From: an uncultured Clostridia bacterium
GTDB lineage: Bacteria > Bacillota > Clostridia > TANB77 > CAG-508
Length of the DNA stretch: 64,000 bases
Direction of reading: 5' to 3'
Assembly (NCBI GenBank): GCA_934167095.1
Contig: CAKPKE010000004.1
Coordinates: 7,033 to 71,032, forward strand
Below, piece by piece: positions 33,393 to 47,282 of this stretch (positions are counted from its first letter, which is position 1; each line of letters opens with the position of its first letter). The notes beneath the pieces were generated by a model, which worked only from the letters and a program-made list of their open reading frames with translations, was not told the DNA's origin and ran no database searches. Both the position numbers and the translations under genes were made by a program.

Positions 33393-33421
33393 TTGACTTA
33401 TTTTTTCTTATTATTTATAAT
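33393..33421 (+). promoter_or_regulatory. SigA-type promoter of first pilin-like gene
   Basis: TTGACT (33393-98), 17 nt spacer, TATAAT (33416-21). Confidence 0.6.
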
Positions 33422-33442
33422 TAAGTTATTATATGAAAATAA

Positions 33443-33841
33443 GTGGGTGAGAAGAAAGTGAAAAAAGCATTAAAAGCAATTTTAAATTTAATATGTATAG
33501 GTTTTATTATAATGAATGTAATGACACTTATTTCGTATGCATCACCAGATATAATCGATCCAAATAAAGTTATAAATGGAACACAAAACATAGAAACACC
33601 ATCTCAAATGACTGATAGAGTAAAAACTGTATTAGGAATAATCCAATTAATAGGAAGTGTGTTTGCTGTAGTTACAATCCTATTAATAGGAATTAAATAT
33701 ATAACAGGTAGTGTTGAATCAAAAGCTGAATACAAAAAAGTTATGATTCCGTATTTAGTAGGTGCAATATTATTATTTTGTACTACAAATCTAGTTCCAT
33801 TAATTTATAATATGATTCAGTCAGCTACAGAAAATATATAA
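33443..33841 (+). CDS. VirB2/TrbC-like T4SS pilin candidate, paralogue 1
   Basis: GTG start (33443, or GTG 33458). Signal peptide ..LISYASP. Two hydrophobic helices flank a charged loop: VLGIIQLIGSVFAVVTILLIGIKYITGSVESKAEYKKVMIPYLVGAILLF. Confidence 0.55.
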   Translation: MGEKKVKKALKAILNLICIGFIIMNVMTLISYASPDIIDPNKVINGTQNIETPSQMTDRVKTVLGIIQLIGSVFAVVTILLIGIKYITGSVESKAEYKKVMIPYLVGAILLFCTTNLVPLIYNMIQSATENI

Positions 33842-33852
33842 TATGTAAACTA

Positions 33853-33881
33853 TTGAAAAATAGTAAAAAGTGTTGTATAAT
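33853..33881 (+). promoter_or_regulatory. SigA-type promoter of second pilin-like gene
   Basis: TTGAAA (33853-58), 17 nt spacer, TATAAT (33876-81). Confidence 0.55.
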
Positions 33882-33899
33882 GGAAAATGAGGTAGTTAT

Positions 33900-45400: not shown

Positions 45401-46069
45401 GATGCTGAATCAGATTTGATAATTAAAGAAATGCTAAAAATGTATAGTGCAGTAGGTGTTATATTAGATGACTCAACTTCTTCAGATAATAATTCATGGT
45501 CTGGTGGTAATGGAAGTAGTAATGGTGGCTCTTCAATAAATGGAGAAAACGGTGATTTAGCAGGTAGCACAGGAGAGGGATTCTGGAACACTTATACTAA
45601 AGGTGGAAAAACATATAAATTATATTATCAAAATTATATGGGAACATATAACAACTGGGGTACAGGAACAAATGTAATGTGTGTTGCAACAGCTTATGCA
45701 ATTGTTAATTCTGCAGCAGGAGGAGGCAATCCTTTGGCATACTGGCAAGATGGCGTTGGTGGCGTAAATGGTGGCTTATCAAGATGTAGCAGAGATCAAG
45801 ATACAATAATGAATTATGTTGATAGTGGAAATCCTGTTGTAGTATATTCATACTTTGGAAATGCATTTTATGGCTCACCTCATGCTATTGTATTGTTGGA
45901 TGCAAGGAACACATCAGGAACAAATGAAGTATTTGTAGTAAATCCATATTATACACCAAACGGTTCTGGCGGACAAAAAGCAGGCGGTTGGATGCCACTA
46001 AGTACAGTTTTAGGATATCCTCAAGCTACAACAAATGCATTTGGTTCTTGCGGAGTACTATTAAGATAG
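42443..46069 (+). CDS. Multi-domain membrane-anchored hydrolase: alpha/beta-hydrolase + GH73-like glucosaminidase + papain-like Cys peptidase (VirB1-role candidate)
   Basis: TM KKIVIGALIAVIPAALFWAVI. The alpha/beta hydrolase has VVMCHGFTGAKEGD.. and the nucleophile elbow GIVGHSMGG (nt 43376-43393). GH73-like segment FAIAVTIAESSGGTNW..HNWMSV..WRKYTSFSQATRDFGKLI (about nt 45080-45330). C-terminal Cys..His peptidase NVMCVATAYA..GSPHAIVLLD (about nt 45640-46069). Confidence 0.65.
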   Translation: MGDNDKNIKKKIMSKAIKKIAKKIVIGALIAVIPAALFWAVIEGLLDELSNSINNLGSTYTSITSSINSDLSEGINITDDKIEQLISVLQKNGISLQSVFLSGDTLGLDETSPEYKTELYKYLRQFLLAQVCTQYPDFGITEDETHYNGIIKIRRTASTATSVDEAVDMTYVKKDKFEAMVEAVNTNSLENSTLSGEYETDTKNVDIDYTDGTKIKSTIIVPAGLSDSIPLVVMCHGFTGAKEGDEHHFTTLGTLLASNGIATITIDFPGCGQSDVDSLKYTLSTMQGYVDTAIEKMKSDYNIDESKIGIVGHSMGGRVASLYLDKVSAAALWAPANGDGLKGLEFLGNYDELNNTAQENGSVSSGWDYASTAVNFDGKFTLSNTFFNEMSESHPNEKISSFSGKLFVAYDSEDRDGTNNVISPETVQSVKDALPSGAEWKEYEDNHNFINTGSALILDTANFLCNAFLGHDAGRSTDAVNLLDGYTLEQLRNLIQTVYTIDNNGNLYFTNRKITDTTSEAGTTAETTTREYVVTVQSVNYKDAVEKYSMPMQASLALCEGTQNPQYVYEFIDDFVRAGHIDITIMDSLYVDTYNSWYDYQYSQRVEVWTKKETTTYDKWDTKHEYPHTSVTWPKTKDETTNIQVNNRHHNTIIINTIESTAKVTDVDTWMAKVNFEFSNQQNMVDYPLGEETVVDNNANLPDSIPASSTTSNEDTKTTTTYSYDTSNSNNWCHWTQTQNIVHNEWVQDSVEVDEVAIDQKAQAIVAQWDEQFSVPNSTATAAPGPMIKNNEGMFLEMLNNESTQKQQEIFKNLLYIYTNGLYGSNEKNNDIYKDNDLKTVTNDDIIVNVTKSVARLVLSKDQLKTAIKACYSGQAQENLLGALDAFYSIQQNYKVNGTFAIAVTIAESSGGTNWAAIDEKTHNWMSVQGSFSGNSYTDGNGTKWRKYTSFSQATRDFGKLIKNNYFSEGRNTVKEVIEKYNPGGADAESDLIIKEMLKMYSAVGVILDDSTSSDNNSWSGGNGSSNGGSSINGENGDLAGSTGEGFWNTYTKGGKTYKLYYQNYMGTYNNWGTGTNVMCVATAYAIVNSAAGGGNPLAYWQDGVGGVNGGLSRCSRDQDTIMNYVDSGNPVVVYSYFGNAFYGSPHAIVLLDARNTSGTNEVFVVNPYYTPNGSGGQKAGGWMPLSTVLGYPQATTNAFGSCGVLLR

Positions 46070-46079
46070 GAGATTGGTT

Positions 46080-47204
46080 ATGAACAAAAAGAAAAATATT
46101 GTAATAATTGCAATGATAATATTAACTATGGCAATTATTGCTACACTATTAGTAATATTAAAAACTACCAAACAAAATAGTGAAGACGAAGAAAATGTAT
46201 TAATGGAAGGATACGAAAATTTAAGTGTAATTACAGTAGAAAAAGTTAAATCAAAAACAATCTTACAACTTTTAATGAACTGCTTAAATGAAGACTATAT
46301 ACGAGAAGCATACAAAGTGAATACACAAGACATTGAAAAATATGCTGTTTATGTAAGAGAAAGTGCTGAAAATAAATTTTATATTGTTTACTTAGACTAT
46401 GATAATAAAGCATACAAAACTGATGAAATAAATGAAGAAACATATAAAAAAATAAAAAATGGACAAATAGATCAAAAATATTTAGAAACAAAAAGTGTAG
46501 AAGCAAATGGTCAAAATAGCTTTTTGGTAACAAATATGACAGACGAAAAAATAGCTATTATGTATTATAATGTAATCAAAAATTTAATAGTTAATGATAA
46601 TGTAGTGCTTTATAGCATATTAGACGAAAATTATAAAAATGCAAAATTTGCAGACCAATCAACATTCTATAATTATTGCAATAATATAAAAAGCAGTGTT
46701 GCAGACTCTGAAATAAGAGAATATAAAATAGATACTGTAAATGGTGTAGAACAGTATACTTGCATAGATAATAATAAACATACATTTATAATTAAAGTAA
46801 CATCTGCATTAGATTATACAGTTATGTTAGATGACTACACCGTTGAAAACAACACAGAAGTAGAGGAATATAATTCTTCAAATGATACTACAAAAATCTC
46901 TAAAAATATTGATAAATTTATGAAAATGATAGTAAATAGTGATTATCAATCTGCCTATAATTTACTAGATGCAACATATAAAGCAAATAATTTTCCTACT
47001 TTAGAAAGCTATACAAATTTTATTAATTTGCATTTTTATAGAACTGGATATTATACAATCGATTCGATAACGATGCAAGGAAATTACTATGTAGTAGCAG
47101 TAACTACAAAACAAACAGCGACTGTTGCTTCTTATAGTACTACAAATCAAATAATAATGAGCTTAGGCGAAGGTACAAGTTTTACAATGTCAATAGCAAA
47201 ATAA
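46080..47204 (+). CDS. N-terminally anchored T4SS-associated protein (paralogue-like of 41467 gene)
   Basis: ATG 46080 behind AGGAGA. TM IVIIAMIILTMAIIATLLVIL. The C-terminal module IVNSDYQSAYNLLDATYKANNFPTLESYTNFI echoes GNITEAYNLLTEKCKAEFYTTQNDFKSKY of the 41467 protein. Confidence 0.35.
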   Translation: MNKKKNIVIIAMIILTMAIIATLLVILKTTKQNSEDEENVLMEGYENLSVITVEKVKSKTILQLLMNCLNEDYIREAYKVNTQDIEKYAVYVRESAENKFYIVYLDYDNKAYKTDEINEETYKKIKNGQIDQKYLETKSVEANGQNSFLVTNMTDEKIAIMYYNVIKNLIVNDNVVLYSILDENYKNAKFADQSTFYNYCNNIKSSVADSEIREYKIDTVNGVEQYTCIDNNKHTFIIKVTSALDYTVMLDDYTVENNTEVEEYNSSNDTTKISKNIDKFMKMIVNSDYQSAYNLLDATYKANNFPTLESYTNFINLHFYRTGYYTIDSITMQGNYYVVAVTTKQTATVASYSTTNQIIMSLGEGTSFTMSIAK

Positions 47205-47239
47205 TTAATTATGAAATAAAAAATTGCTAAATAAGTGAT

Positions 47240-47282
47240 ATGAACCCAAAATGTTAGATAAAACATATAGGGTTCATTTTTA
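47240..47282 (+). terminator. Rho-independent terminator closing the T4SS-like locus
   Basis: ATGAACCC / GGGTTCAT outer stem plus inner ATGTT/AACAT pairing, then TTTTT. Confidence 0.75.

Follow-up and report, generated by a model that had tools for sequence, protein, structure and literature searches.

A chromosomal locus resembling a type IV secretion system (T4SS) was found in a 64-kb stretch of DNA (hereafter the window, in whose coordinates its features are given) from an uncultured member of the Clostridia order TANB77. We put at roughly 60% the probability that this locus is a domesticated monoderm T4SS which came from a module of the Clostridium plasmid or integrative and conjugative element (ICE) type, became fixed and vertically inherited in TANB77, and likely serves cell contact and macromolecule exchange rather than self-transfer. 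A sequence-only reading of the window had proposed a domesticated machine rather than a decaying ICE, and this view is well supported by the conserved position of the locus between a pair of M16 peptidase genes (M16a/M16b) and dac, by its co-divergence with the flanking genes, and by purifying selection. The same reading had suggested that the locus would serve something other than conjugation, a suggestion that is strengthened by the precedent of the Patescibacteria systems considered below.

The open reading frame (ORF) map of the window showed ten co-oriented ORFs spanning positions 33443–47204; eleven genes had been counted earlier, with correct coordinates for the individual ORFs. They are arranged in the order of three pilin genes, a PrgI/VirB3-like gene (B3), a gene for a detached VirB4 N-terminal part (B4N, 388 aa), virB4 (B4, 655 aa), a gene in the VirB6 position (B6, 989 aa), and the genes of an anchored protein, a 1208-aa hydrolase, and a second anchored protein (Table 1). 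The gene overlaps described at 35257/35267 and 36410/36423 are real according to this map. The window is AT-rich, with a G+C content of about 24–36%.

Relatives were collected by a VirB4-seeded scan of one genome per GTDB species, which returned at least 584 genome stretches, and the best 80 were kept for the counts. The VirB4 proteins of these 80 were 80–94% identical, and all the genomes were gut metagenome-assembled genomes (MAGs) labelled as uncultured Clostridia or Clostridium, except for two with other NCBI labels. Closed chromosomes of 1.57 and 1.70 Mb were among them, as was locus L066 (MGYG-HGUT-00421), which UHGG classifies as o__TANB77; f__CAG-508; g__CAG-269. The exact VirB4 protein of the window was also encoded, in an identical gene context, by many contigs from human-gut metagenomes. 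The order of the ten genes was kept among the 80 species-level genomes, with the exception of the CAG-269 lineage (L066, L072), where the last three genes were missing. In most of the 80 loci that retained flanks, the locus lay between the M16 pair and dac; thus, it is syntenic across dozens of species. Presence/absence polymorphism with att-like junctions was looked for among the relatives, and none was found. Two VirB4 loci on separate contigs (L062 and L069) were obtained from one MAG, CAKPGD01; either this genome has the locus twice, or the bin is mixed.

A comparison of divergence between species showed that VirB4 identity tracked that of the flanking M16b (Spearman 0.86). The median pairwise identity of VirB4 was 0.83, vs 0.66 for M16b, 0.58 for M16a, and 0.68 for YqeY. 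Since the synonymous divergence (dS) of virB4 was 0.69–1.23, saturated as far as that of its neighbours, the high VirB4 identity reflects constraint and not recent transfer. The ratio of non-synonymous to synonymous divergence (dN/dS) of virB4 was 0–0.08, the lowest in the neighbourhood, and that of the 388-aa gene was 0.03–0.2. The pilins, B6, both anchored proteins, and the hydrolase had median identities of 31–44% and dN/dS values of 0.33–0.64. Thus, dN/dS was well below 1 in every gene of the locus, which bore out purifying selection on it.

The conservation profile placed the variable stretches in the mature N-terminus of the pilins and in the first 250 residues of B6. Within the species of the window, VirB4 did not show a single amino acid change among five strain contigs. 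In one strain of this species (L005), pilin 3 and B6 were only 84% and 71% identical to their counterparts in the window at the amino acid level and had raised dS, whereas most neighbouring genes were 98–100% identical; these two alleles were apparently replaced by recombination.

The search with Pfam profiles, which covered all ORFs of at least 100 aa in the 64-kb window, revealed no domain of a relaxase, a type IV coupling protein (T4CP), or a recombinase; no tRNA was found in the window, and no direct repeat bracketed the locus. This agreed with the sequence-only reading. The flanks of the relatives were surveyed by tblastn of about 20 kb around the locus in the 80 genomes and by ORF maps of 11 loci, and contained mainly the same housekeeping genes where flanks were present. 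No T4CP was seen in the flanks looked at, which were covered by tblastn and ORF maps only and were not screened with hidden Markov models (HMMs).

The origin of the locus was explored in a library clustered at 50% identity. A single VirB4 neighbour with 67% identity (P0121) was found in a similar pilin-bearing locus beside the housekeeping gene pgi, and the next relatives were at most 42% identical. The VirB4 relatives at 41–42% identity carry the same module. In the metagenomic element L087/L088, the module (L088) is adjacent to genes for a T4CP and a tyrosine recombinase; on the Clostridium botulinum plasmid p12/29 (NZ_KT897275.1), it includes just one weakly pilin-like gene along with a C39 + 3D hydrolase. 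Domestication is indicated by these nearest relatives, which reside in Clostridium plasmids or in elements that also encode a coupling protein and an integrase. The simplest reading is that a Clostridial plasmid or ICE mating-pore module was domesticated, its pilin gene was triplicated, and the transfer genes were lost from the locus. The position of the nearest VirB4 relatives on Clostridium plasmids and elements also suggests an origin separate from that of the Patescibacteria T4SS.

Several features of individual related loci were recorded in addition. SSB-family genes were located a few genes 5' of the pilin array in L066 of the CAG-269 lineage (4148–4849) and in L090, the 67%-identical outgroup locus (4604–5263), which also has a TraX-family gene near its SSB-family gene. 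In L100 (14454–17926; VirB4 about 37% identical), a T4SS module lies beside Tad/Flp pilus genes (CpaB-like, CpaF, TadB), and the same element carries repressor and RecD2-like genes.

Table 1. Genes and candidate transcription signals of the T4SS-like locus in window coordinates (TM, transmembrane; AF2, AlphaFold2; pLDDT, predicted local distance difference test).
Feature	Position	Strand	Evidence
Sigma-70-like promoter candidate 5' of first pilin gene	33393–33421	+	TTGACT-17-TATAAT, 11/12 matches
VirB2/TrbC-like pilin 1, 132 aa, signal peptide and two hydrophobic helices	33443–33841	+	PF18895 E=1.2e-10, above cut-off
Second promoter candidate, 5' of pilin 2	33853–33881	+	TTGAAA-17-TATAAT, 11/12 matches
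VirB2/TrbC-like pilin 2, 127 aa	33900–34283	+	TrbC and T4SS_pilin E about 3e-4, below cut-off; paralogue of pilins 1 and 3
VirB2/TrbC-like pilin 3, 123 aa	34356–34727	+	PF18895 E=9e-12; PF04956 E=1.5e-10
Intrinsic-terminator-like hairpin ending pilin unit	34765–34788	+	10-bp stem then T run (terminator scan)
PrgI/VirB3-like two-helix membrane protein	34836–35267	+	PF12666 E=1.6e-3 (below cut-off); two TM helices
N-anchored TraC-like/TrsD-like protein, 388 aa, detached VirB4 N-terminal part	35257–36423	+	Precomputed PF26593; one TM helix
VirB4-class ATPase, 655 aa	36410–38377	+	NCBIfam CD1110 family E=6e-65; PDB 4ag5
Polytopic protein in VirB6 position, 989 aa	38392–41361	+	TM prediction, five or more TM segments
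Terminator-like hairpin overlapping stop codon of 989-aa gene	41348–41378	+	AATGGTAAG / CTTACCATT stem then T run, by eye; not called by scan
N-anchored protein 1, NTF2-like domain and beta-sandwich, candidate VirB8 analogue	41467–42429	+	AF2 model, pLDDT 83.8
N-anchored multi-domain envelope hydrolase, 1208 aa, VirB1 role, with alpha/beta hydrolase and glucosaminidase-like domains	42443–46069	+	Pfam; PDB 5t1q
N-anchored protein 2, three alpha/beta NTF2/cystatin-like domains, candidate VirB8 analogue	46074–47204	+	AF2 model, pLDDT 84.1
Terminator-like hairpin at locus end	47240–47282	+	ATGAACCC ... GGGTTCAT then TTTTT, 22-nt loop, by eye; not called by scan

The 655-aa protein proved to be a VirB4-class ATPase with intact Walker motifs. 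Its score for the CD1110 family was 219.8 bits, under the NCBIfam equivalog cut-off of 325, and it also matched TraC (E=9e-41) and VirB4_CagE (E=3e-25), as well as the solved VirB4 C-terminal domain (PDB 4ag5) at E=3.7e-28. The Walker A motif AKSGAGKS was invariant in 80/80 species, and Walker B, [VI][LI][VI]DEAW, was conserved. The 388-aa TraC-like protein aligned to positions 48–364 of the VirB4_plasma profile (E=0.008), and the ATPase covered positions 342–889, so that the two proteins together tile one full-length profile; the resemblance to a VirB4 N-terminal region, noticed earlier, is supported by this alignment and by the PF26593 match. No significant match to PDB was obtained with the sequence profile of the TraC-like protein. 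A duplicated VirB4 N-domain was considered for this protein and dropped, since the hhalign comparison of the 388-aa family with the N-terminus of the adjacent VirB4 family showed no homology (probability 3%). Thus, the locus encodes a split VirB4 of the TrsD/TrsE type, not a duplication. The PrgI/VirB3-like assignment, which is weak in this copy, was upheld by PF12666 matches in 31/33 orthologues and relatives (best E=2.8e-9). The true start of this protein is probably M27 (position ~34914), where conservation begins.

The three pilins predicted from the sequence were likewise confirmed: pilins 1 and 3 scored 41.7 and 45.3 bits against the T4SS_pilin Pfam cut-off of 26.6, so that two of the three passed it, and TrbC/VirB2 was matched by 44 of the 45 members of the three-gene array in 15 species. 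All 15 of these species had three pilin genes per locus, with the paralogues 27–41% identical. Each pilin has a signal peptide and two hydrophobic helices, between which lies a conserved loop, G-x-K-Y-x-x-G-S-x-x-x-K-A-E-Y-K-K. As for the transcription signals proposed earlier, both promoter candidates were recovered, although promoter-like sequences were not more numerous in the region than expected by chance; the terminator at 34765 was called by the scan, and the hairpins at 41351 and 47240 are visible in the sequence but failed the scan criteria. All these promoters and terminators are consensus matches only.

The 989-aa protein consists of a variable exposed N-terminal domain, a pilin-like hairpin (residues 294–363), a conserved TM core, and a long variable tail. 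A T4SS_pilin segment was detected in 24 of 32 members of its family, and TrbL_4 in four of them (best E=5e-4); a match to pLS20_p028 had E=1.4e-4, and no significant match to PDB was obtained with the sequence profile. Its polytopic nature, position, and topology fit the VirB6/TrbL identity assigned by the sequence-only reading, but HMM support for it is weak, unlike that for VirB4, PrgI, and the pilins. The protein may be a fusion of a “headed pilin” with a VirB6-like core. The gene is intact in the window, as had been stated of the long ORFs of the locus; however, in several sister strains (L002, L003, L004, L006) a net 11-nt deletion at ~39581, in a locally divergent stretch, splits it into ORFs of 414 and 586 aa. 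The second ORF of this variant restarts exactly at the Met of “MYTSFAG,” which belongs to a variable loop separating the pilin-like hairpin from the conserved core. At another locus, L042 (11984–20718), three consecutive large ORFs of 923, 774, and 984 aa follow virB4; the 774-aa ORF is related to B6 by tblastn, and the 984-aa ORF contains a pilin-like hairpin.

The two N-anchored proteins were modelled with AF2 from alignments built from database hits; in both models, an N-terminal TM helix precedes the NTF2-like domains. Their sequence profiles gave nothing significant against PDB. For protein 1, Foldseek detected the NTF2-like N-terminal domain of PBP2a/PBP5 (PBP2a N-domain, E about 0.02) and DUF4352-type sandwiches, all of them weak matches with E of at least 2e-3. 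The matches of protein 2 were also weak and included the VirB8-like OrfG structure 7pkw at E=0.05. Foldseek with both whole models showed no significant match to any VirB8 structure, only weak per-domain matches. In the 1208-aa protein located between them, the glucosaminidase-like domain matched PDB 5t1q at E=6e-3, and the C-terminal part is probably a Cys peptidase, C39_2 being detected only in a 49%-identical relative. The domain mix at the hydrolase position differed in nearly every sampled species and comprised NlpC/P60, CHAP, C39-like, M23, and glucosaminidase domains, phage and tail lysozymes, GDSL esterase, alpha/beta hydrolase, and GH3.

Based on this gene content, the following arrangement can be proposed. 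The split VirB4 ATPase, anchored via its PrgI-like and TrsD-like membrane partners, would power a channel, for which the protein in the VirB6 position would provide the pore, and the two NTF2-like anchored proteins would scaffold this channel across the wall. The anchored multi-domain hydrolase would open the peptidoglycan, and the three VirB2-like pilins, presumably transcribed separately, would be polymerised into a surface filament. The sequences themselves show the gene content, the synteny, the vertical inheritance, the selection pattern, and the mobile relatives, and from these we infer pilus assembly, a substrate, and a partner cell. The shuffled lytic domains and the hypervariability of the exposed parts are in keeping with a machine confronted with varied foreign surfaces.

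A number of observations weigh against the proposed domesticated contact machine. The VirB6 and VirB8 assignments draw on position, topology, and fold class, and no significant match was obtained for either of them. L066 and L072, of the CAG-269 lineage, have ABC-transporter genes after B6, and their ~22-kb loci contained no homologue of the anchor-hydrolase-anchor part; thus, this part is not universally linked to the locus. The exposed parts could just as well evolve fast under pressure from phages or host immunity if the filament were purely adhesive. Homologues of T4CP commonly occur at a distance from virB4 in Patescibacteria (PMC12102498). Finally, the window contains genes for sporulation, cell shape, and polysaccharide degradation, and TANB77 is therefore not obviously an obligate epibiont.

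In a stronger version of the proposal, TANB77 would depend on contact with other bacteria, and the pilus-bearing T4SS together with the Tad pilus would be essential to it, as in Saccharibacteria, being the organelle with which it attaches to partner cells, breaches their walls, and exchanges macromolecules with them. We hold this to be a tentative and rather unlikely extension. If true, an essential T4SS of the Patescibacteria type would be a convergent solution to partner-dependent life in Bacillota, or would have a Clostridial source, and contact dependence could explain the resistance of TANB77 to cultivation.

The locus could also be a conjugation or mobilisation machine owned by the host, in which a T4CP and a relaxase from elsewhere in the chromosome would use the channel for the transfer of mobilisable elements or chromosomal DNA between cells. 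Outside the clade, all relatives have the appearance of conjugative modules, T4CP genes often lie far from virB4 (PMC12102498), and SSB-family genes stand just 5' of the pilin array in L066 and L090. Nevertheless, we regard this explanation as fairly improbable: T4CP and relaxase genes are lacking in the 64 kb, the flanks of the relatives hold mainly the same housekeeping genes (in a survey without HMM screening), and order-wide vertical inheritance with VirB4 constrained beyond its housekeeping neighbours is atypical for a transfer apparatus.

A role in DNA uptake or release, like that of Helicobacter ComB, archaeal Ced/Ted, or the T4SS of the Neisseria gonococcal genetic island, appears clearly unlikely. 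It would accord with a VirB4 and a channel that lack a local T4CP or relaxase, as in ComB, and a reduced-genome host may rely on scavenged nucleotides; weak NCBIfam matches to CedB and CedD were obtained as well, but these are generic P-loop matches far below the cut-offs. ComB-type uptake requires ComEC as the inner-membrane DNA channel. In the window, comEC (57190–58965 and 58907–59500) is split in the metallo-beta-lactamase domain into parts of 591 and about 193–195 aa. The same split recurs in each of the five independent metagenome contigs from this species and is therefore fixed, not an assembly error, while VirB4 is unchanged among the same contigs. The connection between comEC and the locus on which the sequence-only reading had speculated thus points the other way, comEC being split in every strain examined while the T4SS stays constrained. 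In addition, the analogous T4SS of Southlakia is essential, whereas its comEC is not (PMC12857230).

Equally doubtful is a filament without any transport, serving only adhesion or immunomodulation on mucus, plant fibre, or host cells. The three pilins with their own promoter candidates and terminator, the hypervariability of the exposed pilin segments, and the presence of a second conserved filament, the Tad pilus (PMC11680825), are compatible with it, but the ATPase and membrane core are the most constrained parts, and a large domain-shuffled wall- and ester-hydrolase is retained, both of which fit a transport machine that breaches walls better than a simple adhesin. That the locus is the remnant of an ICE or plasmid, either decaying or newly integrated, is very improbable, for even though homologues sit in mobile elements and the 989-aa gene is split in some strains, the window has no integrase, att repeat, or tRNA, most flank-retaining loci occupy the same site and co-diverge with their flanks, dN/dS is well below 1 in every gene, and the second ORF of the split variant has its start precisely at a Met of a variable loop.

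Pfam annotation of the window ORFs confirmed that both flanks consist of ordinary chromosomal genes: pcrA/uvrD, mreBCD, PBP2, minC, spoIIE, tatD, rpsU, yqeY, and the M16 pair on the left, and dac, an AbiE toxin-antitoxin pair, rpsL-rpsG-fusA-tuf, comEC, and a clpB-like gene on the right. A 50-aa Spo0E-like ORF (33214–33366) lies directly 5' of the first pilin promoter candidate, and the same place in several other species (L016, L027, L042) holds an ORF of about 81–85 aa. A sporulation link prompted by this neighbour was dropped, as adjacency was its sole support. The AbiEi/AbiEii pair (49226–50653), located between dac and rpsL, is the one element in the vicinity of the locus that is obviously accessory. 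The context of the str operon is unusual, since rpsL-rpsG-fusA-tuf (50874–55686) is placed after the toxin-antitoxin pair and dac and not after rpoB-rpoC. In addition, proteins with cohesin and dockerin domains and a GH5 cellulase with DUF285 repeats are encoded at 4403–6836 and 20247–22262, representing cellulosome-like parts in a small-genome organism.

TANB77 is an uncultured reduced-genome gut order that is prevalent and a consistent marker of checkpoint-blockade response (PMC11680825). A full-text search of the literature on TANB77 or CAG-508 together with T4SS gave nothing describing this locus. The paper on a “conserved pilin” of TANB77 was considered as a possible description and set aside, as it concerns the Tad pilus and does not mention a T4SS (PMC11680825). 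The Tad cluster is conserved in 122/129 TANB77 species and comprises CpaB/TadZ/CpaE/CpaF/TadBC with type IV-class pilins, and one predicted pilin-like protein of this pilus stimulated dendritic cells via TLR4 (PMC11680825). Like the T4SS locus, it is an order-wide conserved surface-filament locus, but a different machine. The T4SS locus adds a concrete candidate surface machine in a clinically interesting order and suggests practical handles, namely cultivation with partner cells and strain typing by the hypervariable pilin and B6 alleles.

Comparison with other systems that work without a relaxase or T4CP showed that H. pylori ComB and archaeal Ced/Ted also combine a VirB4-class ATPase with a channel and were exapted for a host function. 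However, they have no significant sequence relationship with the TANB77 locus beyond the P-loop, and comEC is disrupted in the present species. The Gram-positive conjugation systems (pGO1 TrsD/TrsE, the CD1110 family of CTn2, pCF10 Prg, ICEBs1 Con, pCW3 Tcp, and pIP501 Tra) share with it the VirB4 motor, PrgI/VirB3, a candidate VirB6-like polytopic protein, candidate NTF2-fold VirB8-like proteins, and an anchored wall hydrolase, which is bifunctional in those systems; in its VirB4 N-terminus, split off in the TrsD-like manner, it corresponds to the pGO1 subclass. Those conjugation systems differ in being mobile, in having a T4CP and a relaxase, and in lacking VirB2 pilins according to a 2025 review (PMC12857230). 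The Clostridium plasmid module (p12/29, L087/L088) has the same order of a small pilin-like gene, VirB3-like, TraC-like, VirB4, a polytopic protein of about 860–990 aa with a pilin-like hairpin, and a C39/NlpC-type hydrolase. Unlike the TANB77 locus, it is plasmid-borne or neighbours T4CP and tyrosine recombinase genes, carries one pilin-like gene, and is not syntenic with housekeeping genes. The presence of pilin-like genes already in Clostridial plasmid modules bears on the source of the Patescibacteria pilins.

By gene content, the best analogue of the TANB77 locus is the chromosomal T4SS of Patescibacteria, for example SEML1_0006-0019 of Southlakia epibionticum. These systems comprise pilin arrays, PrgI, TrsD, VirB4, VirB6, and hydrolases without a relaxase, and that of Southlakia is essential for epibiotic growth (PMC10633639, PMC12102498). 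Both are chromosomal systems of monoderms that are vertically inherited within lineages. Both contain tandem arrays of divergent VirB2-like pilins (PF04956/PF18895), PrgI/VirB3, a TrsD-like VirB4 N-terminal protein, VirB4, VirB6 (a candidate in TANB77), and adjacent peptidase or lysozyme genes, in a cluster without a relaxase or T4CP. The TANB77 host resembles Patescibacteria in being uncultured, in its reduced genome, and in having a type IV-class (Tad) pilus as well (PMC11680825). The locus differs in its occurrence in the order TANB77 of the phylum Bacillota, in an array fixed at three pilins, and in its two NTF2-like anchored proteins, whereas Southlakia has yielded no structural homologue of VirB8. 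The 2025 review describes the Patescibacteria systems as unique among monoderms in VirB2 pilins and in their requirement for growth (PMC12857230). The TANB77 locus is of like design and is fixed throughout an order of true Clostridia, and its ATPase is under tighter constraint than the neighbouring housekeeping genes. TANB77 probably contains an exapted pilus-bearing monoderm T4SS of independent origin in Bacillota, which would be a second, apparently independent instance in which a conjugation pore has become an organelle of its host.

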